Shown: piece after piece, positions 3,416 through 51,313 of the stretch
Layout of the letters: each line of letters begins with the position of its first letter
How positions within the stretch are numbered: position 1 is the stretch's first letter
NCBI GenBank assembly: GCA_016219925.1
Contig: JACRJU010000010.1
Coordinates: 32,147-96,146, forward strand
Direction: 5' to 3'
Length of the DNA stretch: 64,000 bases
From: Candidatus Uhrbacteria bacterium
GTDB taxonomy: Bacteria; Patescibacteriota; Patescibacteriia; UBA9934; GWF2-40-263
Notes under the pieces: model-generated
The model's database searches: none
Told to the model about the DNA's origin: nothing
The model's input: the letters and a program-made list of their open reading frames with translations, nothing else
Made by a program: the position numbers and the translations under genes

Positions 3416-4876
3416 ATGCAGGATTTTCGTGATACACTGCCGTTATCTATGCAAAAAGGCATTGTGGCGAGAAATTTCGCCGTGCAAGTATCTGGAAAAC
3501 TTCTCGCTGTTTTGGTTGGACTCATTTCAGTTGGTGTCCTGACACGCCACCTTGGAACAAATGGGTTTGGAGAATACACCACAGCGATCACGTTCCTTCA
3601 ATTGTTCGGGGTCGTGGTTGATTTTGGTCTGACCCTCACCATGGTCGTCATGATTTCAGAAGAGGGAGCGGATAATGAACGGATCATTGGAAACATTTTT
3701 GGTCTGCGCCTCTTGAGCGGGGCGCTGATTTTCAGTTTCGCTCCGCTTGCGGTGCTTTTGCTCCCGTGGTCCGCGCAGGTAAAGGACGCCGTACTGATCG
3801 GAAGCGTCGCGTATGTGCTTATGGGAGGAGCGACTCTGCTCGTCGGAGTCTTCCAGCGCTTTCAAGCGATGTGGCGGTCTGCACTGGCAGAAATGGTTAA
3901 CCGCATCGTACTGGTGATTGCCATCGTGATATTCGCGCAACTCAACTTAGGAGTGGTCTGGATGGTCGGAGCTTCGATGATTGCCAATGCGGTTTGGCTT
4001 TATGCCATGGTTCGACTGGCTCGCCCTTTCGTACGCATCCGTTTTTTGATGGATAGACATCTTTGGCAACAGGTGTGGTCTCGTTCTTGGCCGATTGCGG
4101 TCTCCATTTTTTTTAACCTGCTCTATCTCAAAGGGGACGTCCTCTTCCTTTCTTTGTATCGAAGCCAGACAGAAGTCGGTCTTTACGGAGTCACCTATCG
4201 CATCATCGACATGCTCACCGCCTTGCCGGTGATGTTCATGGGCATCCTTTTGCCTTTGGTTGTGAACACGTGGTCGGCTGGAAATCACGAAGAATTTCGC
4301 ACTCATGTGCGCCGTACATTTGATTTATTTATGATCGCCGCTATTCCGATTGTGATTGGAACACAGGTCGTGGCTGGACGGCTTATGCGACTGATCGCCG
4401 GGCCTGGATATGAAGCTTCTGGTGATATTTTGCGCTTGCTCATCTTCGCGGTCCTGGGTGTTTTTCTCGGCGCGCTATTCGGACATCTTGTGGTCGCCAT
4501 CAACAAACAAAAACCCATGGTGTGGGGATATGTGAGCGTCGCGGTGCTCACCGTAGCCGGCTACTTCCTTTTTATTCCCCCTTATGGCATGTGGGGTGCC
4601 GCTTGGATGACGCTTTTCTCTGAAGGTTTGATCGCAATCATCACGTTTGCGGTGGTCTATCACACGACCTCCGCCGTCCCACACTTGGGCGTGACACTCA
4701 AAGCCATTTTCGCTTCAGCCATCATGTATATCTTCCTGCAATTTCTCCCTACCCCATTTGTGCTTCTTGATCTTGCAGTGGCCGCCGCTCTTTACTTAAT
4801 CGTTATGCTTGTTATCAAAGGAATCAAGCTTGAAGAACTCCTCGCGCTAAGAGAAGCGCGCAATGCGATTGAATGA
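3416..4876 (+). CDS. Polysaccharide/oligosaccharide flippase (MOP/Wzx family)
   Basis: 486-aa polytopic membrane ORF with about 12-14 hydrophobic segments. The N-terminal [17 protein letters not shown] pattern matches this family. Confidence 0.6.
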
Positions 4877-6062
4877 TATGACCGCGATACTCCTTTTGAT
4901 CACCCTCGTCTTTGTCGTTCTGGCTTACAAACGGCTTCCCCTCGCCGTCCTTTTGGTGATAGCCCTTCTGCCGAGCTATCTGCTTCGTCTCACCCTTTTT
5001 GGGATCCCAACAACTTTGCTTGAACTCATGCTCGGCGTTGTTGTTGTGGTTTGGCTCGGACAAAATCGTCATCGGCTGAAAACGATCCTCGCACTTGAAA
5101 GACGTTGGGCGATTGCGATTGCTTTGGTGATTCTAGCGGCGACGGTTGGAGCCGTCGTTGCTCCGGATACCATCGGCGCTCTTGGCGTTTGGAAAGCGTA
5201 CTTCATCGAACCCGTCGCATTGTTTTATGTTCTTGTTGATTTGTGCCGAAAAAAAGAATTAGACAGCAGCCGCATCATCAACGCGCTTTTGCTTGGTGGC
5301 GCGATCATCGCCGCGCTGACCCTCGTGCAGTGGGTGACGAATCTCGGCATTCCGATCCCATGGGATTTCGAACGCCGCGCGACCAGCCTCTTTGATTATC
5401 CCAATGCTGTTGGTTTGTTTTTAGGTCCGATCGCGATCATCACTTTGTACAAAAAATCCACGCGCGCGCTTTTCCTGCTCTTTCTGATTGCCATTGGGCT
5501 TGCACAGTCCGAAGCGGCTCTTGGAGCGATGGCAATCACGCTTGTCGTGATGGGACTTGCCTCTGCCCATATTCGAAAAACAACGCTCGTATTATGTCTC
5601 GTGGTCGCAACTCTCCTTTTGGTTATACCCACCACCCGCACCTATCTGATCACCAAGGTTACTTTGCAAGACCCTTCAGAACAGGTACGCGTCAGTCAAT
5701 GGCAAGAAACAATCGCCTTTCTCAAAGATCACCCGTTTTTTGGAGCAGGCCTCTCGGGATATCCTAAAGCCCTCGTCCCCTATCATACCCACCTTCAGTA
5801 CGAAATTTTTCAGTATCCGCACAATATCTTTTTGAACATCTGGGTAGAACTCGGTCTTTTGGGACTCATCGCTTTTGTTTTTTTAACGGCAACGCTTCTG
5901 CGTTCTCTTCTTTCTTCTTTCTTCTTCCTTCTTCCTTTGCTCGAAATCCTCCTCCATGGCCTCGTTGACGTTCCGTATTTCAAAAATGATTTAGCCGTGC
6001 TCGTGTGGATTCTGATCGCTCTTGTGTATGTCGAATACACCAACGCAAAACACGCCTCATAA
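4863..6062 (+). CDS. O-antigen ligase/polymerase-like (Wzy_C family) membrane protein
   Basis: 399-aa polytopic ORF overlapping the flippase stop. It has a Wzy_C-like loop region ([23 protein letters not shown]). Confidence 0.55.
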
Positions 6063-7114: not shown

Positions 7115-7188
7115 TCCGATTCTGGATCATCGCCATCATTTTTTGTCTGCTGCTTCTCGTTGTTTTGTACTACGCCTCGAAAGAATAG
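7111..7188 (+). CDS. Possible 25-aa hydrophobic micro-protein coupled to the SET gene
   Basis: ATGA overlap with the SET stop (ATG 7111-7113, TGA 7112-7114). It encodes MIRFWIIAIIFCLLLLVVLYYASKE, a single TM helix. Too short to be in the ORF track. Confidence 0.25.
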   Translation: MIRFWIIAIIFCLLLLVVLYYASKE

Positions 7189-7216
7189 GCGGCTTGTTTT
7201 ATAATAGGAACATCCT

Positions 7217-8089
7217 ATGACGATTCGAAAAGCCATCATCCCTGTTGCTGGCATGGGCACGCGTTTTTTGCCTGCTGCCAAAGCCCAGCCAAAAGAAATG
7301 CTCCCCGTGGTCGATAAACCGATCATCCAGTATATCGTTGAAGAAGCGGTGCAAAGCGGCATCGAAGAAATCATCTTCGTCACCGCCATCGGTAAACATG
7401 CTATTGAAAACCATTTTGATCGAAACTTCGAATTGGAATACCGCCTTGAACAAAAAGGGAAACTCAAGGAACTTAAAGCCATATCGGAGATCGGCAGACT
7501 CGCCAAATTCGCCTTCGTGCGCCAATCCAAACCCCTTGGTGACGGCCATGCCGTATTAAGCGCCCTCCCCTTTCTCGATTTGCACGAACCGGTCGCGGTC
7601 CTTTTTGGCGATGACATTATCGAAGGCAAAACTCCGGCGCTCAAACAATTGATTGATGTCTATAATAAGTACGGAGATTCAGTCCTCGCGTTACAAAAAG
7701 TGCCAAAAAACATGGTGAACCAATTCGGGGTGGTGGATGGGAAAAAATTATCCAAAACAACGTGGGAGATCAGGGGCTTCGTAGAAAAACCCGACATCAA
7801 GGAAGCTCCAAGCGATTTAATCGCAATCGGACGCTATATCCTGACTCCAAACATTTACACGCTTCTGGAAAAACAAAAACCCGGCAAGGATGGTGAAATC
7901 CGTCTGGCTAACGCGTTTGAGACGCTCCTCAAAAATAACGGAGTCTTGTATGGATGCCACTTTGAAGGAACCTGGCATAACTGCGGCGATAAATTCGGAT
8001 TCGTCAAAGCGCAAATTGAACTGGGCCTTAAACATCCCGATGTTGGTCCGGCTCTCAAAAAATATTTCAAAACCATGAAACCCCTATGA
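7217..8089 (+). CDS. galU: UTP--glucose-1-phosphate uridylyltransferase
   Basis: N-terminal signature KAIIPVAGMGTRFLPAAKAQPKEMLPVVDKPIIQY, a VEKP motif, 290 aa. Confidence 0.9.
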   Translation: MTIRKAIIPVAGMGTRFLPAAKAQPKEMLPVVDKPIIQYIVEEAVQSGIEEIIFVTAIGKHAIENHFDRNFELEYRLEQKGKLKELKAISEIGRLAKFAFVRQSKPLGDGHAVLSALPFLDLHEPVAVLFGDDIIEGKTPALKQLIDVYNKYGDSVLALQKVPKNMVNQFGVVDGKKLSKTTWEIRGFVEKPDIKEAPSDLIAIGRYILTPNIYTLLEKQKPGKDGEIRLANAFETLLKNNGVLYGCHFEGTWHNCGDKFGFVKAQIELGLKHPDVGPALKKYFKTMKPL

Positions 8090-9462
8090 GGAGGACCTCT
8101 TTCAAAAAACTTTCCCTGCTGTTCGCTCTCATCCTGCTTGTCGGTGCAGGATGCACAGGCCCATCGGCCGCGGAAATTTCAGCTACCAAACCCGCCACCA
8201 TTTCCATTTGGCAGGTGTTTGACTCGGAAGAATCGCTCTTGCCAATCATGAACGCTTATCGCGCCATCCATCCCAATATTTCCTTTGAATATCGCCAGCT
8301 TCGTTCAGACGAATACAAAAATGAACTCCTGCGCGCATTTGCGGAAGGAAAAGGCCCAGATGTTTTTGCTATTCATAACACCTGGGTGGGCGAATATGAA
8401 AGTTTGATCGCTCCGTTGCCCGCGTCGCTCCAAATCGGCTATTCCGAAACGCGCGGCACCATCAAAAAAGAAACCATCTACACCTTAAAAGAAGAGCCGA
8501 CGATTTCCCTGCGAGCGCTCAAAAATGATTTCGTGGATGTGGTGTCCAAAGATGTGGTGCGTGCCTACCGCGTCAACCAGAATACCGAACCTCAAGATCG
8601 GATCTTCGGCCTTCCCCTTTCCGTTGACACAATGGCTCTTTACTACAATAAGGATCTGCTCAACGCCGCCAATATCCCTGAACCGCCAACCACATGGACG
8701 CAGTTTCAAGAACAGGTTGGCAAACTCACCAAAATTGGCCAAAACGATACGATCTTACAATCCGGCGCGGCCGTGGGCACGGGAAAAAACATCGAGCGCG
8801 CAATAGATATCTTAAATCTTCTCATGCTCCAAAATGGCGTCGAGATGGTTAGCGACCGTGGATCTGCTATCTTTGCCACAGGATCAGACAAAGAAAATCT
8901 AGCTGCAGATGCTGTGCGCTTCTATACTGATTTCGCCAACCCTCTTAAACAGGTGTACACCTGGAACGACTCTCAACCCAATTCATTTGACGCCTTCGTC
9001 AACGGCAAGGCCGCATTCTTTCTTGGCTATGCTTACCACGCGCCTCTGATTGCCGCACGGTCGCCAAAACTCAACTTCGCCATCGCTCCTGTTCCCCAAA
9101 TCGAAGGAGGAAAAACCGTGAACTACGCAAATTACTGGGTGGAAACCGTTTCACGCCAAACGAAAAATCTTGATACCGCTTGGGATTTCGTTGAGTTCGC
9201 CGCCTCAAAAGATCAGGTTACAAAATATCTCGATCTTGCCAAACGGCCGCCTGCTCGGCGAGCGCTTGTGAGTAGCCAACTTGAAGATGAAACCCTCTCG
9301 ATCTTTGCCTCCCAAGTGCTCACCGCGCAAAGCTGGTATCATGGAAGAGACGCGGGGGCTATGGAACAAGCCTTCATTGACCTCATCGGAGCGACCCTTT
9401 CAGGTTCTGATACACAAGAAATTTTGACGATCACTCAAAATAAAGTGAACCAAACGCTTTAA
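8086..9462 (+). CDS. Extracellular solute-binding lipoprotein (ABC family-1 type); no cognate permease or ATPase is adjacent
   Basis: ATGA overlap with the galU stop. Lipobox LLVGAGC. Length and composition fit sugar-type solute-binding proteins. Confidence 0.6.
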   Translation: MRRTSFKKLSLLFALILLVGAGCTGPSAAEISATKPATISIWQVFDSEESLLPIMNAYRAIHPNISFEYRQLRSDEYKNELLRAFAEGKGPDVFAIHNTWVGEYESLIAPLPASLQIGYSETRGTIKKETIYTLKEEPTISLRALKNDFVDVVSKDVVRAYRVNQNTEPQDRIFGLPLSVDTMALYYNKDLLNAANIPEPPTTWTQFQEQVGKLTKIGQNDTILQSGAAVGTGKNIERAIDILNLLMLQNGVEMVSDRGSAIFATGSDKENLAADAVRFYTDFANPLKQVYTWNDSQPNSFDAFVNGKAAFFLGYAYHAPLIAARSPKLNFAIAPVPQIEGGKTVNYANYWVETVSRQTKNLDTAWDFVEFAASKDQVTKYLDLAKRPPARRALVSSQLEDETLSIFASQVLTAQSWYHGRDAGAMEQAFIDLIGATLSGSDTQEILTITQNKVNQTL

Positions 9463-9467
9463 GCTTT

Positions 9468-10094
9468 ATGCGACGAGCTTTTGCCTTTCTGCTCATCACC
9501 CTTTCCGTTGCGGCTTTGCCGTTTGCTGGATTGGCGTACTCGAGCAACATTTGCAAAGGCCCGACCTGTGATGTCTCCGAGGTGGGACGATTTATGGAAG
9601 GGATTACGCGCGAATGTGGAAACCTGGGCAACTGCTCGATCAATGATATTTTGATGGTGTTTGCCAATGCAGGAAACTTCGCCGTCGGCATTGTGGGAGC
9701 GCTTGTGCTTCTCATGTATGTGATCGGGGGAATGTACATGCTTTCTTCAGCAGGATCTTCGGACCGAGTCGCAAAAGGAAAAAAATATCTCACCATCTCA
9801 ACAACGGGGCTCCTCATTGTCGTCTTTGCTTATATTGGCATTAAGACGCTCGAATCGGTTTTGAGAACAGCCGGAGGCGAGGGTGACTTCGTCGAGGCTT
9901 GCACCGAGTCAACGATCGGCCAGCCTTGCGGACCGTCCAAACAATGTTTTCAAGCTGATGGTGCGTCAAGTGTTTCCTGTATCTCAAACTGTGAAGCTTT
10001 TACTCCAGGGGCGAGTTGCAAAAATGCTTCAAATCCTGCATGTATTTCAGGATTATGCCCTGGAGAAGCCGTGTGTTGTCCTCCAACGCCTTAA
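9468..10094 (+). CDS. Pilin-like two-TM protein (TrbC/VirB2 or T4SS-pilin-like) with a Cys-rich C-terminal extension; paralog 1 of 6
   Basis: Signal peptide, then a hairpin core (GIVGALVLLMYVIGGMYMLSSAGSSDRVAKGKKYLTISTTGLLIVVFAYIG). The tail carries more than 10 Cys. Confidence 0.5.
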   Translation: MRRAFAFLLITLSVAALPFAGLAYSSNICKGPTCDVSEVGRFMEGITRECGNLGNCSINDILMVFANAGNFAVGIVGALVLLMYVIGGMYMLSSAGSSDRVAKGKKYLTISTTGLLIVVFAYIGIKTLESVLRTAGGEGDFVEACTESTIGQPCGPSKQCFQADGASSVSCISNCEAFTPGASCKNASNPACISGLCPGEAVCCPPTP

Positions 10095-10104
10095 TCCCAT
10101 TGCT

Positions 10105-10470
10105 ATGAAACTTTTTTTAAAACGATTAACTCTCCTTCTGTGGATTTGGTCCATGCCCCTTATGGCATTCGCCGCCGACCCGGCAGAAAAAAAATTGTTT
10201 AATCCTCTTGGAACTACGAGCATTCAAGCGGTGATCGCCCGGCTCATCAAAGCTTTGCTTGGACTTAGCGGAAGCATCGCCCTTCTGATGTTTGTGTGGG
10301 GAGGATTCTTGTGGCTTAGCTCTCGAGGGGAAACCAAACAAATCGAAAAAGGGAAAGAAACCATCAAATGGGCCACTTTCGGGCTCGTTATTATTTTTAC
10401 TGCCTACATTTTGGTTGGAGCAATCATTGGTGCGCTGATAAAAGGAACAGCTGTAGAGGCCCCAAGCTAG
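10105..10470 (+). CDS. Pilin-like two-TM protein, paralog 2 of 6
   Basis: Start ATG 10105 (MKLFLKRL signal peptide). Core is GSIALLMFVWGGFLWLSSRGETKQIEKGKETIKWATFGLVIIFTAYIL. Confidence 0.5.
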   Translation: MKLFLKRLTLLLWIWSMPLMAFAADPAEKKLFNPLGTTSIQAVIARLIKALLGLSGSIALLMFVWGGFLWLSSRGETKQIEKGKETIKWATFGLVIIFTAYILVGAIIGALIKGTAVEAPS

Positions 10471-10564
10471 CCGTGTGGATAAGCAGAGTTCTTTCTTCCC
10501 AAAAAAACGAGTAAAATACCTATAACCTTTCAATCATTTAACTTTTAAGGAGGCAACAATTTCT

Positions 10565-11023
10565 ATGACCATGGTACAGAAAAAATATCTCGGTTATGCG
10601 CTGGGAGCCGCCGTAGCCCTGCTCATTGCCGCGCCGATCGTGCTGGGAGGCGCACACAACGCTCTCGCTGCCCCCGGGCCACTTACAAAGGATGAGCTTT
10701 TCGGTGGCAAGGGTAAAACAGGCGATACATTTGCGGCAAATGCCGGACTTGGAAATGCGAACCTGATCGATACGATTTCTTCGATCATTCGCGTAGCTCT
10801 TGGTTTCCTCGGTGTGATTGCAGTGGTGATCATCCTGCTTGGTGGATTCAAGTGGATGACCTCGGGCGGAAACGATACCAAAGTTGGTGAGGCTAAAAAG
10901 CTCATCTTCGCAGGCATCATTGGATTGGTGATTGTGTTATCCGCATACGCGATCGCGAATTTCGTTATCGGCCAAATCGCGGGCGTCACCTCTAATCCTG
11001 TCCCTCCTGTCGGTGCTGGCTAA
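10565..11023 (+). CDS. Pilin-like two-TM protein, paralog 3 of 6
   Basis: AAGGAGG Shine-Dalgarno upstream. Core is GVIAVVIILLGGFKWMTSGGNDTKVGEAKKLIFAGIIGLVIVLSAYAI. Confidence 0.5.
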   Translation: MTMVQKKYLGYALGAAVALLIAAPIVLGGAHNALAAPGPLTKDELFGGKGKTGDTFAANAGLGNANLIDTISSIIRVALGFLGVIAVVIILLGGFKWMTSGGNDTKVGEAKKLIFAGIIGLVIVLSAYAIANFVIGQIAGVTSNPVPPVGAG

Positions 11024-11032
11024 TGACTCATG

Positions 11033-11063
11033 CCCCCATCCCCCATCTTTTGGATGGGGGTTT
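11033..11063 (+). terminator. Intrinsic terminator inside the pilin array
   Basis: CCCCCATCC / GGATGGGGG 9-bp stem followed by TTT. A second 10-bp hairpin (TTGCGTAAGC/GCTTACGCAA) lies at 11062-11099. Confidence 0.5.
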
Positions 11064-11105
11064 GCGTAAGCTGATGAGAGGATTCGTCTGCTTACGCAAA
11101 TATTT

Positions 11106-11504
11106 ATGCAACGTTTTTTCTTGCGCATCGGCGCTCCAGCGATCATCTTTCTTTTGAGCGCCCCGTCTGCTTTGGCAGAGTCCGAAGCGGCAAAAGCGCT
11201 AAAGGGCGGACTCACAGATACCGCCAAGTTGGCTGGCTACCAATCAACATCTTTGCCTGTCATCATTGGAAATGTCATCAAGGCTTTGTTGGGTGTGGTC
11301 GGTATTATTTTCCTTTTGATTACCATCTATGCCGGTATTATGTATATGACGGCCGCGGGAGATACCGGAAAAGTCGACAAAGCAAAAAAAATGCTCACGC
11401 AATCGCTTATTGGCCTGGTGATCATCATAGGCGCCTATGCCTTTGCCAATTTCGTTGTGACTCAACTGGCTGTAGCAACAACGGCGGCACCAGTAAAAAA
11501 ATAG
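11106..11504 (+). CDS. Pilin-like two-TM protein, paralog 4 of 6
   Basis: Core is GIIFLLITIYAGIMYMTAAGDTGKVDKAKKMLTQSLIGLVIIIGAYAF. Confidence 0.5.
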   Translation: MQRFFLRIGAPAIIFLLSAPSALAESEAAKALKGGLTDTAKLAGYQSTSLPVIIGNVIKALLGVVGIIFLLITIYAGIMYMTAAGDTGKVDKAKKMLTQSLIGLVIIIGAYAFANFVVTQLAVATTAAPVKK

Positions 11505-11505
11505 T

Positions 11506-11901
11506 ATGAAAACCTTTTCAAGATGGCTGCTCATCGGAATATTTGTCTTGCTTCCAGTTTCTGCCTGGGCCGGCCTTCTTGATTCGCAACTAAGTACCGT
11601 AGGCAGTCAATTAGGAAAAGACGGTGGGGTCCCAACGAGTCTCCCCGTATTTATCGGTGGACTCATTAATGTCGTTTTATCGGTTCTTGGTCTCGTCTTT
11701 CTCGTTCTCATCGTGTATGCTGGATACATGTGGATGACGGCTTCAGGCGATTCAACCAAAGTTGATAAGGCCAAAAAACTTATTGGACAGGCTCTCATCG
11801 GCATGATCATTGTTATCGCTTCCTATGCGATCAGCGCGTTCGTGATCGACCGAATTTCAGGCGCAATTACGGTAGCGCCGGCGGCAGCCCCCACAAAATA
11901 A
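11506..11901 (+). CDS. Pilin-like two-TM protein, paralog 5 of 6
   Basis: Starts 1 nt after the paralog 4 stop. Core is GLVFLVLIVYAGYMWMTASGDSTKVDKAKKLIGQALIGMIIVIASYAI. Confidence 0.5.
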   Translation: MKTFSRWLLIGIFVLLPVSAWAGLLDSQLSTVGSQLGKDGGVPTSLPVFIGGLINVVLSVLGLVFLVLIVYAGYMWMTASGDSTKVDKAKKLIGQALIGMIIVIASYAISAFVIDRISGAITVAPAAAPTK

Positions 11902-11923
11902 CTTTCTTGAATCTTAATTATCT

Positions 11924-12316
11924 ATGAAAAATCTCTACTACACTTTCAGCGCCTGGATTTCCGTCTTGGGCCTGTCGCTTTTGCCGGCAAGCGCCATGGC
12001 TCAACTTAAACCATCAACAGATGCGGCGAGTGATCTTGGTAAGATCGGCAAGAAACTCGGCAACGAGACTCCAAACGATCTTCCAAACCTCATTGGCGGA
12101 CTCATCAACATGTTCCTTTCGATTCTCGGCATCGTCTTTGTGGTGCTGGTGATCTATGCCGGATACCTTTGGATGACGGCATCTGGCGACGCTACTAAAG
12201 TTGATAAAGCCAAAAAACTGCTTGGCCAGGCCATCATTGGAATCATCATTATTGTGGCGGCCTACGCGATCAGCACGTTCGTTATTAATAGGATCGTCGG
12301 AGCGGTTAAACCGTAG
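11924..12316 (+). CDS. Pilin-like two-TM protein, paralog 6 of 6
   Basis: Core is GIVFVVLVIYAGYLWMTASGDATKVDKAKKLLGQAIIGIIIIVAAYAI. Confidence 0.5.
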   Translation: MKNLYYTFSAWISVLGLSLLPASAMAQLKPSTDAASDLGKIGKKLGNETPNDLPNLIGGLINMFLSILGIVFVVLVIYAGYLWMTASGDATKVDKAKKLLGQAIIGIIIIVAAYAISTFVINRIVGAVKP

Positions 12317-12320
12317 ATTT

Positions 12321-12356
12321 AAAAAAGGCAGAGCCGCGAGGCTCTGTTTTTATTTT
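12321..12356 (+). terminator. Intrinsic terminator of the pilin operon
   Basis: CAGAGCC-gcga-GGCTCTG stem followed by TTTTTATTTT, with an A-tract upstream. Confidence 0.7.
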
Positions 12357-12410
12357 GAAAATAAACATCCCCTGACCGACTCCACGTGAGGTGGATATCG
12401 ACCAGGGGAT
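12357..12410 (-). terminator. Terminator-like hairpin closing high-GC cassette A
   Basis: Outer stem ATCCCCTG/CAGGGGAT and inner stem TCCAC/GTGGA (12367-12410). It lies 4 nt after the stop of the 309-aa gene and is followed on the minus strand by a T-rich run. Confidence 0.45.
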
Positions 12411-12414
12411 AGGA

Positions 12415-13344
12415 TCAGCGCTTCCACCCGTTAGTGGCGTGGGTGATGCGCCGATCAAGGCTCTCGACGCGGTCGAGTTCGACCCGGACCGCGTTGCCCC
12501 ACAGAGTCTGGGGCGGCAGGCCGGGGATCTCGACCAGACTGCCGGTCGGAGCCAGGTAGATGATCTCGATGCGGTCGCGTGGGCCGACCGCCGAGATATA
12601 GAGCTCGTCGTAGGCGGCCGGGGCGACCGCGCTGTACGGGGTGCGGTCCGGACGACCGTCCCCATCGAGATCGGCGTAGACCGTCTCGATCGAGCCATCC
12701 GCATTGCCGATCGGGATGGCAACCCCGTTGCGCTTCACGAGAACCCGCGAGAATTGGGGGTTTCGGTGGGTGTGCCAGCTGACCCCACTGGCAAGCCCGA
12801 AGACTTGCAAGTAGGGGCCAACCACCTCGAAGGTCGTGGCGGCGTATGCCCCTGGGGTCGGGATGACCCTGTAGGGCGCGCCACCGACCATCATCGTGGA
12901 CGGTGGTAGGCCTGCGGGCGGACGGTGGTAGGCCTGCGGCTCGGCTGGTTGAGCCTTGCCGTCCTTCGCCTTCCGATCGCGGAGCGTCCGAAGACGCGCC
13001 TTGATCTGCTGCCTGGCTGTGCCAGCGGCAGGCAGCTCCGGCTGCTTGGCGTCCGGCACTGCCTGCTGGGACGCGAGCTTGGCTTTGGTCGCCTCGAGCT
13101 CCTGACGGAGCCGATCGACTTCGGCCTTGAGCCCGCTCTCGCCGGCTTTGAGCCGCGCCTCCAGGATCTTCACGTTCTGATCCTGGATGCACAGCAGTTG
13201 CTTGAGGCGGGCACTCGAGTCGGTTCCGGCGTAGCGGGCCTCGCAGAATGCGACGGCCTGCTTCGCTTCCTTCGACTCTTCAGCGTGCAGGGTGGCGGGG
13301 ACGAACAGGAACAGGGCGGCCGCGATGGCCATTTCGAACTTCAT
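12415..13344 (-). CDS. High-GC cassette A, gene 2: secreted coiled-coil protein with a beta-rich C-terminal domain carrying a DxDxDG loop
   Basis: Signal peptide MKFEMAIAAALFLFVPATLHA-EE. Heptad-like region LEARLKAGESGLKAEVDRLRQELEATKAKL. Contains DLDGDGRPD. AAGGAGA Shine-Dalgarno 5 nt upstream. Codons are almost all G/C-ending. Confidence 0.6.
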   Translation of the reverse strand: MKFEMAIAAALFLFVPATLHAEESKEAKQAVAFCEARYAGTDSSARLKQLLCIQDQNVKILEARLKAGESGLKAEVDRLRQELEATKAKLASQQAVPDAKQPELPAAGTARQQIKARLRTLRDRKAKDGKAQPAEPQAYHRPPAGLPPSTMMVGGAPYRVIPTPGAYAATTFEVVGPYLQVFGLASGVSWHTHRNPQFSRVLVKRNGVAIPIGNADGSIETVYADLDGDGRPDRTPYSAVAPAAYDELYISAVGPRDRIEIIYLAPTGSLVEIPGLPPQTLWGNAVRVELDRVESLDRRITHATNGWKR

Positions 13345-13419: not shown

Positions 13420-14043
13420 CTACTTGCGGTGAACTCGGAGGAGCTCGTTGAGGTCGCGGCGGTTGCACGCCGCTTCCTCTGCGGGGTTGGCGGGCGGGCG
13501 ACCACCAGGGCACTGGCTCGTGCTCGCGGGCGCGAGCGCTTGCGGAGGTGGCGGGCCGTAGTAACCCGGGGCGACCGCTTCACCGAGCGGCGGGAGGTAG
13601 CCTCTGGCTCCTGCCCGCCATCCAGCCTCGATCATGGTCGTCTCCTGGCTGGCTCCCGGATAGTAGACAGCCTGACCGTACGGCCCGTAGCCGCCGGCGG
13701 CGTAGGGGTAGGCCCCCATGCCGTACGGCCCGTAAGCGCCGTAGTAGCCCGTGTACCCGGAGGTCACCTGACCTCCGCGGGTGCTCACCTGCGTGGGCAC
13801 CCCCTTGTCAACCGACGCGCGGGCCGTTGCGGCCGCGCGCTCGGCCGCATCGCCGTCATGACGCGTACGCTCGAGCTGGTCGGCGGCGGCAAGGAGCGCT
13901 GCCGCTCCCCCGGTGGTGGCCAGATCCTGGTGGACCTGGACCGAACCGATGACCCGACCGCTTGCGTCGGTGAGGTCGCGCTTGAGCGCGACGCTCGCGC
14001 ATCCCGTGAGGGCGGCGAGCACGATGGCGAGGATGGTCTTCAT
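13420..14043 (-). CDS. High-GC cassette A, gene 1: lipoprotein with a Gly/Tyr/Pro-rich low-complexity region
   Basis: MKTILAIVLAALTGC lipobox. GGAG lies 6 nt before ATG 14043 (alternative ATG at 14055). Contains GYTGYYGAYGPYGMGAYPYAAGGYGPYG. Confidence 0.6.
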   Translation of the reverse strand: MKTILAIVLAALTGCASVALKRDLTDASGRVIGSVQVHQDLATTGGAAALLAAADQLERTRHDGDAAERAAATARASVDKGVPTQVSTRGGQVTSGYTGYYGAYGPYGMGAYPYAAGGYGPYGQAVYYPGASQETTMIEAGWRAGARGYLPPLGEAVAPGYYGPPPPQALAPASTSQCPGGRPPANPAEEAACNRRDLNELLRVHRK

Positions 14044-14125
14044 CTGCTTCTCCATGTCGACTCGCCTGCGGCTGCCGACTCAATTGCCCTGAAAAGGACG
14101 GTTTGTCCCAATTTGGGAACGTAGA

Positions 14126-15599: not shown

Positions 15600-17600
15600 C
15601 TACTTGCAGCCGAAGGCCTGACGACCTTCATAGCTAAGCGCCGCGCAGTCGACTCCGTTGGTGTGCGTGTGCGGCTTGGAAGCCGAACGCGCGCTGGACG
15701 AAGTCGGGGGCGTCGTGGCGAAGGGGTCCATCGTGTGGTGACCCACGAACCACGGAACGCTCACCGCGACCATGAGTGCGCAGAGGAAGACCGCGAGGTG
15801 GCCCACCAGGGGGTTACTCCCTTGAGTCACGTTCAGGATCGATCCTGACTGCACCCGTGTCTGTGCGAGCCGGCGCACGAGCCAGTACCCGGGCAGGTAC
15901 ACGAGCGTGAAGAGGACCGCGCTCGCAACCCACTGATGAGTCCCGAGGAAGCTGAGGCTTGCACCCCAGGCCGCGACAGTCGCGCCCCAGACGGCTTGCG
16001 GCCATCCGTGACGGATCATCCAGTCTGCGGCGATGATCCCGATCGTCACCAGCCACCCGTACTGCGCGCCCCGAAGAGCAAGCAGTTGGGCCTTGGCCGG
16101 CGCGCCCGCGACCTTGAAGCCCATCCCGATGCACACGCCGACGAAGGCGAGGCCCAGGATGACGACGCGTGCGCTGAGCGACACACCGACCTCCGGGATG
16201 AGGCCCAGAGCGATCAGGTACGCCGGCATCAGCATGAAGGTGAACCTCCAGCCGAATTCGGCGAGCCAATCGGCGGGCCACCCGAGCACACTGACAACCA
16301 GGGGGTGGAGCAGACGCTGCCAGATCCGCAGCGTAAAAAACATGATGATCAGCACCGTCGCGCAGATGATCGCGCGCAGGCTGTGGTACATGCTCGGGGC
16401 ACTGAAGAGGCTCGAGAGCATCCACCAGAACGCCGTGAGGAACATCACCACGGTCGCCAGGTTGAACACCACGATCCCGACCGCCGAGCCGTAGAGCAGG
16501 GCTTTGAGGGTCCCGCTCATGGCGCCGCGGTTGTGCCAGGCGCTCGAAGCGCCGCGCAGGGCCTTGTGCCAGAGCGTGAGCTCCGCACCCAAGGCCGTGT
16601 CGAACGCGGCGATGATGTCGTCGAGATCTTCGGGGTTGAACCGGTCCTCGGGGGTCGCACGCGGATTGTAGTACTCCGCGAGCGTCCTGAGAAACGGCAC
16701 GCCCTTCTTGTCGACGACGTCCTTGACGATGTCCTCGCGCAGGGCGTACTGCAGGGCCGTTCCCTGCCGCACGCTGCGGCTGATGAGCAGGAAGAAGCGC
16801 CGAACCTCGGGTCCGACCGCCTCCCACCACTCGGCGGGCTTCCTCAGAAGACCCTCGAGGATCTTGAGCTCTACGGCGCTGACGCGCTGGGTATCCCCCA
16901 TCTGCGCGATCGCTTCCGCGAGCTTCAGGACCTCGTGCGGGAAGGACTCGGCCGGCACACGCTCGGTGCGAGGCTGTTGGCCCTTGCCACCGCCGACCTG
17001 CTTGGTCGTGGCTTTGTGGGTGTCATCCCAGACGCTCTTGTAGAGCGCCCAGGTCGGATCCAGGATGACGGGCACCTGGTCGGCACCCACCCGAATCTTG
17101 CCGTCAGAGTCCCGGGCCGGAACGAAGATCTTACCCGGAACGAGCCGGCTGACAACAACCCAGTCAAGAGTCTGGTTGGCATCAGCGTCTGCGACGCCGG
17201 GGTCGGAGCGGGCCGCGTCGACCTCGCGATCGATCTGGCTCGCGGCATCCGCGTACCCGGTGAACACGCCCAACAGGGCGTGTGGGCCAACCTCCTTGAG
17301 GAGGAGCTTGGCCTCGCGAACGACCGGACGGGTGTCGCCCGGAAGAATCCGCTCGACGAAGTCGCTCTTCTTGAGCAAGGCCGCGACGGCCGAGCCCGCG
17401 AGTGGGAGGGTGAACCCGGGCATGGTGCGCGCCAGGGCCATGACCGGCCCGGCCGCTCCGAAGATGCCCTTGAGCGACCGCTTGGCGATCGCCTTGCCGG
17501 ACTCTCCAGCACCCGCACCCTCGGTGAGCTCGCGCTCGAGGTGCTGGTGCACGGCCTGTTCGGCGGCCTCTTCGGCCATCAATCGAAGAAACTCGTTCAT
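15600..17600 (-). CDS. High-GC cassette B: 666-aa protein with a soluble N-terminal half (about 350 aa) and a polytopic C-terminal half (roughly 8-10 hydrophobic segments); function unknown
   Basis: AGGAG lies 6 nt before ATG 17600. Strong G/C-ending codon bias. Five long shadow ORFs overlap it, as expected from stop-codon depletion. The C-terminal tail has two Cys (VDCAALSYEGRQAFGCK). Confidence 0.6.
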   Translation of the reverse strand: MNEFLRLMAEEAAEQAVHQHLERELTEGAGAGESGKAIAKRSLKGIFGAAGPVMALARTMPGFTLPLAGSAVAALLKKSDFVERILPGDTRPVVREAKLLLKEVGPHALLGVFTGYADAASQIDREVDAARSDPGVADADANQTLDWVVVSRLVPGKIFVPARDSDGKIRVGADQVPVILDPTWALYKSVWDDTHKATTKQVGGGKGQQPRTERVPAESFPHEVLKLAEAIAQMGDTQRVSAVELKILEGLLRKPAEWWEAVGPEVRRFFLLISRSVRQGTALQYALREDIVKDVVDKKGVPFLRTLAEYYNPRATPEDRFNPEDLDDIIAAFDTALGAELTLWHKALRGASSAWHNRGAMSGTLKALLYGSAVGIVVFNLATVVMFLTAFWWMLSSLFSAPSMYHSLRAIICATVLIIMFFTLRIWQRLLHPLVVSVLGWPADWLAEFGWRFTFMLMPAYLIALGLIPEVGVSLSARVVILGLAFVGVCIGMGFKVAGAPAKAQLLALRGAQYGWLVTIGIIAADWMIRHGWPQAVWGATVAAWGASLSFLGTHQWVASAVLFTLVYLPGYWLVRRLAQTRVQSGSILNVTQGSNPLVGHLAVFLCALMVAVSVPWFVGHHTMDPFATTPPTSSSARSASKPHTHTNGVDCAALSYEGRQAFGCK

Positions 17601-31153: not shown

Positions 31154-32290
31154 TTATGAACGAATAGGCATGAGCACATACCGGTACGCCTGTGTGCTCT
31201 GTGCGGGACTGATAAGACAGGGGTTGGCCCCATCAATCATTTCAAAGACCACCTGATCTGAAACGATCGCTTGCAGGCCATCGAGGAGATAGCGATAATT
31301 TACCGAAACTGTGTTTGGCTGTCCAGAAATTTCTGCGCCGCAAGAGCTGATGTTATCCCCACGGGTTGCGTCTGTCGCCTGAACATGGAGAGCCTCCGCG
31401 GTGGGTTCAAAAGCCAAAGTGACGTCAAATAAGCCATTTTTTGAGAATAAACTAGCGGTTTTTACAGCTTTTATAAAGTCTTCTTTATCCAAAATAGCCC
31501 GTGTTGAAAACTGTTTTGGGATAATCTGCTGGTAATCAGGATAATTTTCATCAATAACCCGTGAAATAAGTTCAACCGGACCAAAAATAAATACCGCCTG
31601 ACTTTGCGAAAGCTGTAAGCTGACAGTTGTTGGTAGTTCAACATCATCTTTGAAAACGGAAAGAACGCGTAGAACCTCCGAAAGCGTCTTGGCTGGGACA
31701 ACGACACTTCTTTCTTGTCCTGGACGATCCAGAAGCGTTATGGTGGCTTCTGAGAGCCTGTAGGAGTCGGTTGCAACCAGCTTCAAACGCCCCTCACTCT
31801 CAAATGAAGAAAAATGCATGAGCACACCCGTGAGTTCTGGACGTGATTCGTTTGTTGCTACCGCAAAGAGGACTTGAGATAAGGCGGCTTTTAAATCACC
31901 AACAGGAATCCGATAGATCTCCTCCCCATTCACTTTTGGCACAAGAGGGAATTCAGAAGCAGAAAGTCCGTTGATTTTTGTTTTGTGGTTTCCGCACTGC
32001 AAACGAATATTATCATCATCCGTATCAAGACGAATTGTTTCGCTTGGAAGGAGCGAAACGTAATCATAAAATAGTTTTGATGGGACGGTGTGCTCCCCCG
32101 GTTCATCAACTTTGCCTCTCACAACACAATTCACTGCAATTTCTAAATTTGTCGACGTAAATTTTATTGTTCCCCCCTCCGCTTTAACAAGAACATTTTG
32201 TAAAATCGGTAAATTAACGTTCTTCGTCATGAGATGGCTTGTGATGCTCAACCCTTGATGGAGATTCTCTTTCGTACAAGACAGTTTCAT
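31154..32290 (-). CDS. dnaN: DNA polymerase III beta sliding clamp
   Basis: MKLSCTKENLHQGLSITSHL...NLPILQNVLVKAEGGTIKFTSTNLE. 378 aa, directly downstream of dnaA. Confidence 0.9.
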   Translation of the reverse strand: MKLSCTKENLHQGLSITSHLMTKNVNLPILQNVLVKAEGGTIKFTSTNLEIAVNCVVRGKVDEPGEHTVPSKLFYDYVSLLPSETIRLDTDDDNIRLQCGNHKTKINGLSASEFPLVPKVNGEEIYRIPVGDLKAALSQVLFAVATNESRPELTGVLMHFSSFESEGRLKLVATDSYRLSEATITLLDRPGQERSVVVPAKTLSEVLRVLSVFKDDVELPTTVSLQLSQSQAVFIFGPVELISRVIDENYPDYQQIIPKQFSTRAILDKEDFIKAVKTASLFSKNGLFDVTLAFEPTAEALHVQATDATRGDNISSCGAEISGQPNTVSVNYRYLLDGLQAIVSDQVVFEMIDGANPCLISPAQSTQAYRYVLMPIRS

Positions 32291-32535
32291 ATTTTTGTTC
32301 TGTATTATTGTTTTTACAAAAGAGATTAATAAATAAAGTAATAGTAGTAAGGGGTGTGGATGAAGTGGAAAACAGAAATTTTTAGCTTAATTGAGTGATG
32401 TTTTAGCTTATGGATTTGTGGATGAACTTAGGTGTTTGGTTGTGGAGTCTTGGTGAATATTTTTGAACACTTTATTTATTCACTCTTTCCCCCACCTCTT
32501 TCACAGAGGGTTACCCACGAGAAGTGCACTGTATA
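32291..32535. promoter_or_regulatory. Candidate oriC (dnaA-dnaN spacer)
   Basis: About 60 nt of AT-rich tract at 32291-32350. DnaA-box variants TGTGGATGA (32355-32363 and 32417-32425), TGTGGAGTC (32441-32449) and TTACCCACG (32511-32519). Further 8/9 boxes lie upstream of dnaA at 33949-33957 and 34000-34008. Confidence 0.45.
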
Positions 32536-33927
32536 TTAATAGGTGTAGAGTTTTTGTTTGATCAGTTCAAGATCGTGTTGAAGTTTTTCATCCGCCACAA
32601 GACAATTACAGATTTTTTCATAGGCGTGCATAGCTGTTGTGTGGTCTCGTCCTCCAAGTTCTGTTCCAATAGATGGATAACTCGCTTTCATTTCCTCACG
32701 CATGAGATACATGATAATTTGTCTTGGAAACGCCAGCCGTTTTTGGCGGCTCGCTCCAAGCAGGTCAACGATTTGGACATCGAAATATCCAGCGACTGTC
32801 TGAATAAGCTGTTTGGGGGTAACGGTTTTTCTTGTGTTTGAAGGAGTGAAGCTTGAGAGGATTGGTTTTACAGAATCAAGAGTTGCGCGGGTGTTTTTGA
32901 ATTGATGAAACGCGATAATTTTGTTAAGGGCTCCTTCAAGTTCTCGAACGTTCGTTTGGACAACACTTGCGATGTGATGAACGATGTCGTGTTCGAGTGC
33001 GTAAGTTTTTTCTCGGCACTTGGTTTCTAAAATTGCTACACGTGTTTCAAAATCTGGAGAGCCCACGTCGGCCATCATTCCCTGCTCAAATCTTGAGATA
33101 AGCCGGCTTTCAAGTTGGGGGATGGCTTTTGGTGGACGATCTGAAGAGATCACGATCTGCTTGTTATTTTGGTAGAGCTGGTTGAATGTGTGAAAAAACT
33201 CTTCCTGCGTTCCCTCTTTTCCAGTCATAAACTGGATGTCGTCAACCAATAGAACATCAACCGTTCGGTAACGATTTTTAAACTCAACCATCCGCCCCCC
33301 CTTAAGCGCCCCAATGAAATCATTGGTAAAACGCTCGCTTGTGACATATAAAATGCGCGTTTGTGGGCTTTTTCGTATAAGTTCGTTGCCAACCGCTTGT
33401 AAAAGGTGGGTTTTTCCAAGGCCGACACCACCATAGATAAACAAGGGGTTGTAGACGCCTCCTGGCTGTGCACACACAGCTTGAGCGGCGGCGTGGGCCA
33501 GCTCATTTTGTTTGCCAACAATGAACGTTCCAAAACAGTACTTTCCATTAAGAGAAAATTCCCCTGTGCGAATTTCTTGAGGTTCGTGACTGGTTCTGGG
33601 TTGGTACCCGTCTGATGTTGGTGGTTCGTTCTGCGAAGACCCATCGAACAGCGGAATAATTTGTTGAGGAGCTTGTTGGCGCGCTTCCACGCGGTACGTC
33701 AACTGTTTGATTGTTCCGTTCGTGAGATCCTGCAAAGACTGCATGATTTCTTTTGAATACTTCTTTTCTAGCCAGGCTTTTGTAAAAAGATTCGGAACTC
33801 CAACGATAATGGCATGATCACGCACTTCTGAAATAAAAGTTTGTTTAAACCAGGTGGTGAAATTTGCTTTACTCAATGACAATTCGAGTTCGCCAAGAAC
33901 CGCTTGCCAGAGTTCGTTGGTGTTCAT
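32536..33927 (-). CDS. dnaA: Chromosomal replication initiator DnaA
   Basis: Start at ATG 33927 (MNTNELWQAVLGELE). Walker A GGVGLGKTHLL. C-terminal HTH IGTELGGRDHTTAMHAYEKI. Confidence 0.95.
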   Translation of the reverse strand: MNTNELWQAVLGELELSLSKANFTTWFKQTFISEVRDHAIIVGVPNLFTKAWLEKKYSKEIMQSLQDLTNGTIKQLTYRVEARQQAPQQIIPLFDGSSQNEPPTSDGYQPRTSHEPQEIRTGEFSLNGKYCFGTFIVGKQNELAHAAAQAVCAQPGGVYNPLFIYGGVGLGKTHLLQAVGNELIRKSPQTRILYVTSERFTNDFIGALKGGRMVEFKNRYRTVDVLLVDDIQFMTGKEGTQEEFFHTFNQLYQNNKQIVISSDRPPKAIPQLESRLISRFEQGMMADVGSPDFETRVAILETKCREKTYALEHDIVHHIASVVQTNVRELEGALNKIIAFHQFKNTRATLDSVKPILSSFTPSNTRKTVTPKQLIQTVAGYFDVQIVDLLGASRQKRLAFPRQIIMYLMREEMKASYPSIGTELGGRDHTTAMHAYEKICNCLVADEKLQHDLELIKQKLYTY

Positions 33928-34043
33928 ACGGGGCGTAGTGTAGACTACTTGTCCACATGTGAGCAAGTGCGTGTTTCGTGTACAAAGGGGTTGATGTTTT
34001 GTGGGTAACTTGTTAATATCTTTGTGCCTAATGTTTTACCCCT

Positions 34044-43138: not shown

Positions 43139-43651
43139 TTACACGATAGGAACGGTTTTGTCAATATTTTTTTTGCGTGAAGTCAAAAGCAGAAGGGCGA
43201 TAACTCCCAGGACAATCACCAAATCAGAGAAGTTGATGGCACTGCGGCCAAAGAAAATAAGATAATCAACTGTGAAGCCGTAAATAAGGCGATCAAAAAG
43301 GTTTCCCGCCGCTCCGATAAGGATCATGAGACAAGCAAAAGCTACATGAGGCTTTGTGAGAATCGTTTTGCTCACGACGCGAATCAACACAAGACCGATA
43401 ACAATGCTGACGAGCACCACAAGTTCATGACGAAACGGGAGATCGAAGGCGAGTCCGAAGTTTTTATGAACCGCAAAATCAATCAGATGAGGTGAGGTCA
43501 AAAAAGTCTCTTCTGGAAAATATAAGAGTGCCTTTGCTTTGAGCCACTCATCAAGAATGACTGTCAGGGCGATCGGAAAGAGCAAAAAATAAATGTCGAA
43601 TTTTGAACGTTTCACACCTCTTGTGTCAGGGTTTTCTTGCATTGGATGCAA
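43139..43651 (-). CDS. lspA: Lipoprotein signal peptidase II
   Basis: NFGLAF, GAAGNLFDR and VDY motifs, with four hydrophobic segments. Confidence 0.75.
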   Translation of the reverse strand: MHPMQENPDTRGVKRSKFDIYFLLFPIALTVILDEWLKAKALLYFPEETFLTSPHLIDFAVHKNFGLAFDLPFRHELVVLVSIVIGLVLIRVVSKTILTKPHVAFACLMILIGAAGNLFDRLIYGFTVDYLIFFGRSAINFSDLVIVLGVIALLLLTSRKKNIDKTVPIV

Positions 43652-50539: not shown

Positions 50540-51313
50540 CTACGTTTTGAGAAGTTGATCAATAGCCGCTGATACAGAGCTGTATGGGAGAGCTCCTTTG
50601 ATCGGGATCGCGTTGCCATCTTTGTCGATGATGAAAGACCCGGGGGTTCCGTTCACTCCTGCGTTTGCGCCATCTTGGGACTGTTGTTGGATCTTTCCGT
50701 CATACTTGCTTTTGCGGTAGCAGTCTTCCCATTGGTTGACGTTCAGACCAAGCTTGCCGGCAAGCTGTTTGTAGTACGCATCGGATTCAGAATCTTGATT
50801 CGCGAAAAGATCATCTGCAAATTCCCAGAATTTCCCCTGCTCGGATGCACACTCCGCGGCGTTGGCGGCTGGAAGAGCGTTGGGATGAAATGACAATGGG
50901 AAATGTCGGTAGATCCAGCGCACTTTTCCATCGTAATTTTTCATGACTTGTTGCATGGTGGGATGAAAATTTTGACAGAACGGACACTGGAAATCGGAGT
51001 ATTCAATAACGGTGATCGCGGCATCTTTTGCCCCGCGGATATGATCCGCATCTGTGACAACTGGGACGGCTGTGGGCTCGGGAGTTGGGATAGTTGTTGG
51101 ATCCGTGACTCCAGCGTCAGCCACGGCTCCCGCGGCGGATGGGGCTTTCAAACCGAGATTGATTGTCCCCCCTTTGAGTATTTGGGTGCCGAGAATGATG
51201 AATCCAACCGTGCACAGGACAAGAATGGCGGTCACGAAACCAAGCCAGAATGCACTTTTGGCATTCAAGACATCAAAAAGAGATGAGGGTTTGTTGGGTG
51301 AGAGTTGATCCAT
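50540..51313 (-). CDS. DsbA-family thiol:disulfide oxidoreductase, membrane anchored
   Basis: N-terminal TM. CPFC active site in YSDFQCPFCQNFHP. C-terminal GTPGSFI. Confidence 0.75.
   Translation of the reverse strand: MDQLSPNKPSSLFDVLNAKSAFWLGFVTAILVLCTVGFIILGTQILKGGTINLGLKAPSAAGAVADAGVTDPTTIPTPEPTAVPVVTDADHIRGAKDAAITVIEYSDFQCPFCQNFHPTMQQVMKNYDGKVRWIYRHFPLSFHPNALPAANAAECASEQGKFWEFADDLFANQDSESDAYYKQLAGKLGLNVNQWEDCYRKSKYDGKIQQQSQDGANAGVNGTPGSFIIDKDGNAIPIKGALPYSSVSAAIDQLLKT

Follow-up and report, generated by a model that had tools for sequence, protein, structure and literature searches.

The Array and Its Operon

The 64,000-nucleotide stretch analyzed here (contig JACRJU010000010.1 of assembly GCA_016219925.1, Candidatus Uhrbacteria bacterium; hereafter, the window) harbors an array of six genes for pilin-like proteins, P1–P6, at 9468–12316 on the forward strand, directly behind galU and a gene for an orphan solute-binding lipoprotein (SBP). 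P1 (9468–10094) encodes 208 amino acids, P2 (10105–10470) 121, P3 (10565–11023) 152, P4 (11106–11504) 132, P5 (11506–11901) 131, and P6 (11924–12316), the last of the array, 130; a single nucleotide separates P4 from P5. These coordinates bear out the initial annotation, which had recognized six tandem, co-oriented open reading frames (ORFs). The start of P2 is placed at the ATG at 10105, internal to a longer GTG-initiated ORF, because this choice yields a normal signal peptide (MKLFLKRLTLLLWIWSMPLMAFA/ADP) and a length that fits the 110–117 amino acids of the orthologs.

By hydropathy, each of the six proteins has a signal-like N-terminal segment and two long hydrophobic transmembrane (TM) segments. 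AxA-type cleavage sites are visible in the pilin-like sequences, and the loop between the two TM segments is net basic in all of P1–P6. An AlphaFold2 model of P6, computed from 68 sequences, shows a hairpin of residues 52–85 and 90–128 with a pLDDT above 90, the signal peptide and the exposed segment being of lower confidence. Hydropathy, the basic loop, and this model support the proposed architecture of a signal peptide, a variable exposed segment, and a two-TM hairpin. A conserved loop motif, (T/S)(A/S)xG(D/N)xxKVxKAKK, had been ascribed to all six paralogs; in its strict form it is confined to P4–P6 (TAAGDTGKVDKAKK in P4), and P1–P3 carry only a relaxed version. Pairwise identity among the six, aligned over their common core, is 18–60% with a mean of 31%, and P5 and P6 are 60% identical.

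P1 carries 14 cysteines. The C-terminal domain, initially credited with more than 10, has exactly 10, and the remaining four belong to the exposed segment near the N-terminus. Placement of the loop on the cytoplasmic side predicts an extracellular position for all 14. The Cys-rich domain has no match among PDB sequences. Elsewhere in the window, LspA (signal peptidase II; 43139–43651, reverse strand) and a DsbA-like thioredoxin-fold protein (50540–51313, reverse strand) are encoded; these are the activities needed, respectively, for maturation of the SBP lipoprotein and for oxidation of the 14 extracytoplasmic cysteines of P1. A 198-amino-acid ORF adjoining the DsbA-like gene matches no family.

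The first gene of the conserved unit, galU (7217–8089, forward strand), encodes UTP–glucose-1-phosphate uridylyltransferase (TIGR01099, 333.7 bits; cut-off 326.8). It is followed by the SBP gene (8086–9462, forward strand), whose product is of the sugar type (SBP_bac_1/SBP_bac_8; PF01547, 3e-33; PF13416, 5e-26) and has a signal peptide ending in ...VGAGC. Its nearest solved relatives among PDB sequences are sugar- and oligosaccharide-binding proteins (4qrz, 1.3e-18; 1eu8, 6e-15). galU and the SBP gene share 4 nucleotides (nt) at 8086–8089, where the stop of the former overlaps the start of the latter, and a 5-nt gap (9463–9467) separates the SBP stop from the P1 start. The coupling suggested initially on the basis of this spacing is confirmed by the coordinates and is conserved in approximately 60 species-level genomes.

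Behind P6, a terminator scan identified an intrinsic-terminator-like hairpin closing the operon at 12318–12359 (minimum free energy, MFE, −19 kcal/mol; z = −5.1). The element fits the definition of a G+C-rich hairpin with a U-tract of at least five and may be read on either strand: since an A-run and a U-run flank the hairpin, it could also serve the convergent gene. A sigma-70-like sequence at 7177–7205, upstream of galU, matches the promoter consensus but was rejected, the scan having yielded fewer sites than chance expects.

Family Assignment

The Pfam family PF18895 (T4SS_pilin) matches all six proteins. P2 (50.9 bits), P4 (38.5), P6 (35.7), and P3 (34.5) exceed the cut-off of 26.6, and P1 (25.4) and P5 (24.4) fall just under it, both within about 2 bits. 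P2 also passes the cut-off of PF04956 (TrbC/VirB2; 30.5 bits against 27.9) and is, as judged from its sequence, the most TrbC-like paralog. A third family, NF045849 of NCBIfam ("Mbov_0395 family pilin-like conjugal transfer protein"), matches P2–P6; P4 (41.9) and P6 (42.1) pass its cut-off of 40, and P5 scores 34 bits. The TrbC/VirB2 or T4SS-pilin affiliation, proposed initially, is therefore right by both Pfam models, and at the sequence level the homology of P1–P6 to VirB2 is solid. With Pfam E-values per array protein from 3e-5 to 1.6e-13 and the same gene order in dozens of genomes, the array is far beyond a chance pattern.

The NCBI protein HZA85_01650, from a 145.5-kb contig of Candidatus Uhrbacteria bacterium (class ABY1, Patescibacteria), has the same sequence as P6, and a search with P6 returned 87 database homologues, nearly all with PF18895. 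The family as a whole is very large, as 81,140 clusters (50% identity) among 1.84 billion representative proteins matched a pilin-family profile at E ≤ 1e-3. Searches by fold and against PDB sequences were uninformative, because a helical hairpin resembles many unrelated structures; those by fold returned generic helical hairpins only. The PDB sequence matches of the pilin profile were confined to designed "Pizza" repeat proteins, reached via sub-threshold repeats, and are regarded as an artefact.

The same family search revealed many natural fusions of 2–17 hairpin units per polypeptide, all outside the window in the cases named here. P0217 (820 amino acids) has 8 hairpin units without internal signal peptides, P0237 (1775 amino acids) has 17 matched stretches, and P0221 is another multi-unit member. 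By Rosetta-stone logic, the occurrence of such fusions suggests that the units of the array are physically adjacent.

Conservation of the Unit

Probing one genome per species with the SBP yielded more than 579 relatives, of which the best 80 loci (47–70% identity) were kept; in a separate SBP homologue search, the matches listed were all at least 59% identical. Downstream pilin-like ORFs were called with a hidden Markov model built from a P1–P6-based pilin alignment made for this purpose. Among 60 loci with at least 3 kb of downstream sequence, 57 have 4–9 pilin-like ORFs (mostly 5 or 6) directly after the SBP. Between the SBP stop and the start of the first pilin ORF, the median distance is −4 nt, such that overlapping stop and start codons are the rule. 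Upstream, 68 of 73 loci have a galU-like ORF directly next to the SBP. The order galU–SBP–array is identical in five Pfam-annotated loci and is the same in an independent Logan assembly.

The operon is also carried by the complete 1.00-Mb chromosome OZ246408.1 (locus L073). This and other loci of Uhrbacteria type (L010, L011, L015, L023, L027, and others) stem from records titled "uncultured Gammaproteobacteria bacterium"; the titles look like mislabels because gene content and an SBP identity of 50–70% fit Uhrbacteria.

In a motif screen, 76 of the 80 loci had no ATP-binding cassette (ABC) ATPase-like ORF within 10 kb, and none is adjacent in the window. The SBP is thus an orphan as far as neighboring transporter genes are concerned, since just 4 loci have such an ORF within that distance, and its constant partner is the pilin-like array. 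Three loci are exceptions to the SBP–array order. L070 has its six-gene array in inverted orientation, approximately 4 kb downstream of the SBP. In L080 and L084, one pilin-like gene follows the SBP, and an ABC ATPase-like ORF and a 505–531-amino-acid Walker-A ORF are found just upstream. These two, in which the full array is absent, are among the four loci with an ABC ATPase-like ORF within 10 kb, and their SBP may be a paralog that does serve a transporter.

No mention of the link between galU/SBP and the array was found in the searchable literature, including PMC12102498 and PMC10633639, and a near-universal unit of galU, an SBP lipoprotein, and the array appears to be undescribed. Two genes upstream of galU are possible accessories, a Wzx-like flippase (3416–4876, forward strand; Polysacc_synt, 2.4e-25) and a Wzy_C-family protein (4863–6062, forward strand; Wzy_C, 2e-21). 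Their homologues lie upstream in 25–27 of 47 loci with more than 5 kb of upstream sequence, which makes for a weak association with the array; a GARS-like gene recurs in one locus.

Another array stands beside sugar-nucleotide and glycan genes instead of T4SS genes. In a JGI metagenome contig from a distant member of the Patescibacteria (L008, 2894–10465), seven pilin-like genes follow a family-2 glycosyltransferase and a 519-amino-acid protein without a family match. Just upstream are a phosphoglucomutase gene and an eighth gene of the pilin-like kind; an SBP gene is absent.

Ordered Paralog Types

In BLAST comparisons with four relatives, P1, P2, and P3 each have as their best match the gene in the corresponding array position. 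Across 63 loci, array position 1 best matches the P1 type in 49, position 2 the P2 type in 62, position 3 the P3 type in 53, and position 4 the P4 type in 39, and later positions belong to the P4–P6 subgroup in most loci. On this sequence evidence, P1–P3 are ancient types that have been kept in order, and P4–P6 form a younger, more variable subgroup.

Gene 1 ends in a C-terminal domain with exactly 10 cysteines in approximately 30 loci, with the common ending C...CPGG..CC; elsewhere it has a Cys-rich N-terminal part instead, or no Cys-rich part. In the ortholog groups of position 3 and of the last gene, the hairpin is 54–68% conserved versus 25–43% for the exposed segments, and the position-2 group shows the same tendency more weakly. 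The P3 type is the most conserved across orthologs (68% in TM1 and 62% in the loop). The ordered types, the gene-1 domain, and the conservation of the hairpin and of P3 favor a heteromeric assembly of specialized members over a set of interchangeable variants.

The RNA Double Hairpin after Gene 3

Between P3 and P4, the transcript is predicted to form a double hairpin at 11032–11099 (forward strand) with an MFE of −40.4 kcal/mol and z = −6.3. Hairpin 1 (11032–11061) is strong and is followed by a tail of UUU only. Hairpin 2 (11062–11099) abuts it and ends 6 nt upstream of the P4 start codon, at the expected position of the ribosome-binding site. An internal terminator had been annotated at 11033–11063. 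The hairpin itself is real, but it may not act as a terminator: hairpin 1 is not of the textbook kind because its tail, UUU against the five or more U residues of the definition, is itself paired within hairpin 2. The terminator consensus scan did not call it.

The structure is specific to its position. In 62 loci, the 70 nt after gene 3 have a median MFE of −28.3 kcal/mol; genes 1, 2, 4, and 5 are followed by a median of approximately −8 kcal/mol and the last array gene by one of −21.4. The sequence of the double hairpin varies among loci, and its pairing is kept. In an alignment of 31 sequences, 16 of 19 pairs exhibit compensatory changes and 89.4% of the cells are paired, versus 72.5% after shuffling, a value of 89.4% being reached in none of 500 shuffles; when the register of the alignment is slid, 35–58% are paired. 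In several loci, the gene-4 ATG is part of hairpin 2, on its 3′ arm. Searched with a covariance model, the window yields a single copy, and held-out copies immediately behind gene 3 are recovered in four loci outside the model set. The suggestion that the hairpin grades expression along the array gains support from this gene-3-specific structure and its covariation.

No Rfam family corresponds to the double hairpin (best local E-values of 2–8, far under the cut-offs), and only tRNAs reach the Rfam gathering score in the window. A covarying double hairpin after gene 3 in about 60 loci appears to be undescribed. In a more distant subgroup (L048, L058, L062, L069, L071, L072, L076, L081, and L089), which the double-hairpin covariance model does not detect, a nested fold takes its place. 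There, a G+C-rich inner hairpin is surrounded by an outer helix (GUUUUCUC.../...GCGAAAAC), which also contains the AUG of gene 4. The nested fold appears to hide the gene-4 start codon as the double hairpin does, by another architecture.

P3 is also the sole array gene in the window with a strong Shine–Dalgarno sequence (AAGGAGG, 10548–10554). As a general rule this feature was rejected, since a strong Shine–Dalgarno sequence precedes gene 3 in 13 of 63 loci, and for that reason it serves as an argument for the window only.

Secretion Machinery

Pfam scans of 48 ORFs found none of VirB4, VirB6, VirD4, VirB8, and TrsD in the window, and no unscanned ORF there is long enough for VirB4; the early observation that VirB4, VirB6, and VirD4 are missing from the window thus holds. 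Type IV secretion system (T4SS) genes are likewise absent within 10 kb in five Pfam-annotated related loci, and a motif screen over the same distance found no VirB4-like large Walker-A ORF beside the array in approximately 80 related loci. A large membrane protein encoded at 15600–17600 was considered as a hidden VirB6 but provides no evidence for one: it has no Pfam hit even at E = 1, a poor AlphaFold2 model (pLDDT 63, pTM 0.29), and no Foldseek match.

Of 36 Uhrbacteria genomes with RIF names (Rifle aquifer), 18 are listed as VirB4-negative (Table S1, PMC12102498). By the same table, five of seven genomes that carry the galU–SBP–array operon are VirB4-negative and two are positive. The five negative genomes measure 0.93–1.12 Mb, and a complete relative has 1.00 Mb; because they are near full size, incompleteness is unlikely to be the sole cause of the missing VirB4. 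The Uhrbacteria genome GCA_000993535.1 (1.16 Mb) has two adjacent VirB2 hits and no VirB4, TrsD, VirB3, or VirB6 (Table S3, PMC12102498). In one Uhrbacteria genome that does have VirB4, a long distance separates virB4 from the VirB2 hit (Table S3, PMC12102498), so that distance alone does not exclude dependence on a T4SS. Functional membership in a T4SS is unproven in this lineage, and part of the genomic evidence points against it.

T4SS genes are often near dnaA in other classes of the Patescibacteria (PMC12102498). In the window, dnaN and dnaA (31154–33966, reverse strand) lie approximately 20 kb from the array, and this origin-proximal region has the array and no T4SS gene.

Relation to Known Systems

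Arrays of this kind are known as such, having been described in 2023 and 2025 (PMC10633639, PMC12102498). A survey of 3,035 Patescibacteria genomes identified 441 VirB2 arrays of 2–11 genes with a mean identity of 25%, an array being defined as at least two PF04956 or PF18895 genes, in tandem or one gene apart, that are divergent paralogs (PMC12102498). P1–P6 fit this definition, being six tandem genes, 18–60% identical, in a Patescibacteria host. VirB2-like genes are near virB4 in 1135 of 1948 Patescibacteria assemblies (PMC12102498), and Southlakia epibionticum possesses an essential six-pilin array inside its T4SS cluster (PMC10633639); the function of that T4SS has been called "completely unknown" in the literature. 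The present array resembles these in its tandem PF18895/PF04956 genes, Sec signal peptides, low identity (mean 31% here versus 25%), six members as in Southlakia, and chromosomal location fairly near dnaA. It differs in lying outside any T4SS cluster, in an operon with galU and the SBP lipoprotein, and in its fixed order of paralog types and conserved double hairpin after gene 3. Uhrbacteria (class ABY1) are not highlighted as array-rich in either study (PMC12102498, PMC10633639).

The VirB2/TrbC/TraA pilins of diderm bacteria (PF04956) share with P1–P6 a signal peptide, two helices joined by a short basic loop, and small size, and P2 passes the TrbC model. In contrast, the array belongs to a monoderm host, comprises several specialized paralogs, one of them with a Cys-rich domain, has no linked VirB3–B11 genes in the window, and gives no sign of cyclization or of a pilus containing lipid. 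The Mycoplasma integrative and conjugative element (ICE) proteins Mbov_0395 and MMCAP2_0565 (NF045849) share the hairpin core, and P4 and P6 pass the cut-off of that model. They are single genes in mobile elements, whereas the array here has six genes in a housekeeping context without ICE genes. The virB2 arrays of Bartonella and Anaplasma also consist of tandem, diverged VirB2 copies; those belong to virB operons in diderm pathogens, where their presumed role is variation, in contrast to the order and types found here, which are conserved across species.

In fimbrial operons (e.g., papA), a stem-loop follows the major-subunit gene, ahead of further subunit genes. The likeness to the present operon is the strong RNA hairpin after one subunit gene; the protein family and the assembly pathway are unrelated. 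What appears to be undescribed here is the form of the array, which is detached from T4SS genes and locked to galU and an orphan SBP, with ordered types and a covarying RNA.

Proposed Function

A heteromeric pilin-like surface assembly produced from the galU–SBP–array operon is the favored reading and is held to be probable. On the evidence of sequence and modeling, P1–P6 would be exported via Sec and inserted as two-helix hairpins with the basic loop in the cytoplasm and both ends outside. They may then combine to build a single heteromeric, pilin-like structure on the cell surface (a filament or a membrane-anchored fiber), in which P3 would be the abundant core or bulk subunit. The double hairpin is proposed to lower the expression of P4–P6 through transcription attenuation, occlusion of the P4 ribosome-binding region, or both. 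P1 could provide a disulfide-rich head or adaptor, for which the DsbA-like oxidoreductase would be at hand, as LspA would be for the lipoprotein. The co-translated SBP lipoprotein may act at or next to the structure, plausibly as a glycan-binding partner in contact with a host or substrate, and GalU would provide the UDP-glucose that goes into a linked glycan. Glycosylation of protein or surface would suit the Wzx-like and Wzy_C-family genes, which about half of the loci retain; glycosylation of the pilins, raised at the outset, is an inference only.

Several observations weigh against this reading. The term "filament" is extrapolated by analogy from distant VirB2 homology, and fold searches do not separate a pilin-like hairpin from other helical hairpins. 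The covalent multi-hairpin fusions are hard to square with subunits that exit the membrane singly. A T4SS gene is absent near the array both in the window and in approximately 80 loci, and VirB4 is scored absent in five of seven array-bearing genomes. On the side of regulation, hairpin 1 lacks a proper U-tract and may not terminate transcription, and the strong Shine–Dalgarno sequence before gene 3 occurs in just 21% of the loci. Part of the linkage to SBP and galU could be inherited gene order.

The machine that would drive the assembly is a separate matter. A T4SS encoded elsewhere is a tentative possibility, and assembly independent of a T4SS is rather unlikely; in many relatives a T4SS appears to be missing. 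In the canonical form of the first possibility, as proposed for Saccharibacteria, P1–P6 are pilins that VirB4 extracts from the membrane and polymerizes into a conjugative-type pilus. This explanation, which is conceivable without being the expected one, draws on the VirB2/TrbC homology, on the frequent proximity of VirB2-like genes to virB4 in the Patescibacteria, on the essential T4SS cluster that houses the Southlakia array, on the two VirB4-positive genomes with the operon, and on the great distance between VirB2 and virB4 even in a VirB4-positive Uhrbacteria genome. It is countered by the absence of linked T4SS genes, by the five VirB4-negative genomes of near-full size, by the adjacent VirB2 hits of GCA_000993535.1 in a genome without VirB4, TrsD, VirB3, and VirB6, and by the lack of VirB4 in half of the 36 Uhrbacteria genomes, set against a near-universal array beside the SBP. 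At the opposite end stands a self-contained, T4SS-independent envelope device in which the hairpins self-assemble, as a fiber or a pore, with the lipoprotein to capture or import host glycans at ratios set by the RNA, which is somewhat improbable. Its narrower form, a hetero-oligomeric pore or platform of hairpin subunits that stay in the membrane and on which the SBP docks for a new binding-protein-dependent uptake or sensing of host glycans, is unlikely. Such a pore would account for the tight, near-universal coupling of the SBP to the first pilin gene, for an SBP that is related to oligosaccharide binders and has no ABC partner nearby, and for the many VirB4-negative genomes with arrays, and fusions of 8–17 hairpins would give proteins with 16–34 TM segments. 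However, no energy-coupling component has been identified, and transporters of the VirB2 family are without precedent. Filament operons are the more typical setting for one strongly favored subunit gene with a hairpin behind it, and the Cys-rich head of P1 suggests an exposed, adhesin-like part.

Two further explanations concern the array and its neighbors rather than the machine. The linkage could be coincidental synteny, galU and the SBP being ordinary metabolic and transport genes that share no function with the array. All loci come from one lineage, and the wider region is syntenic in several genomes, with SpoIID, Wzx, and Wzy_C upstream and NifS/NifU downstream. Yet the galU–SBP–array core is kept (57 of 60 and 68 of 73 loci) and the flanks far less so, with Wzx/Wzy_C retained by about half of the loci and the GARS-like gene by a single one; together with the overlapping stop and start codons of SBP and pilin 1 and an SBP that has no transporter partner nearby, this renders coincidence quite unlikely. 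The array could also be a variation cassette that holds redundant pilin versions for antigenic or host-range variation, as proposed for the virB2 genes of Bartonella and Anaplasma and suggested for Patescibacteria arrays (PMC12102498). The exposed segments are indeed more variable than the hairpin, P4–P6 are the younger members and vary in copy number, and arrays range from 4 to 9 genes. Against this stand the distinct, ancient types at positions 1–3, whose order is kept across approximately 60 species, the unique domain of P1, and a position-specific RNA that points to fixed stoichiometry and not to switching, such that a variation cassette is very improbable.

Under the favored heteromeric assembly, the fixed subunit order and the position-specific RNA predict a defined stoichiometry. 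A large part of bacterial diversity belongs to the Patescibacteria, which live on other cells, and little is understood of how they attach to their hosts and feed on them. In the single species tested, VirB2-like arrays are essential. An array that is detached from the secretion machine and locked to an SBP and to UDP-glucose synthesis offers a concrete handle on this interaction. Should pilin-like proteins work without a T4SS here, the assumption that "VirB2-like" means a T4SS pilus would need revision; were the T4SS-independent device true, the VirB2 fold would have a second, T4SS-independent life in ultra-small bacteria.

Chromosomal Context and the GC-Rich Flank

The window is ordinary chromosome, with genes for dnaA, dnaN, PBP1, PNPase, PolA, H+-PPase, and NifS/NifU and four tRNAs. 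Beyond the array lie three convergent genes (12415–13344, 13420–14055, and 15600–17600, all on the reverse strand) with a G+C content (GC) of 0.66–0.71, or 0.82–0.85 at third codon positions (GC3). Their neighbors, including a GARS-like gene between the GC-rich genes, have a GC near 0.49 and a GC3 near 0.5. None of the three matches a known family, and they evolve fast: for a 666-amino-acid membrane protein among them, 9 homologues were found, the best at 45% identity.

An assembly chimera or a one-off transfer was rejected as the source of the GC-rich stretch, as an independent assembly shares the junction and relatives share the pattern. The 4 kb behind the array exceed the operon in GC by 0.05–0.15 in 44 related species, after which the content returns to baseline. 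One idea is that the stretch is a recombination hot spot with GC-biased gene conversion.

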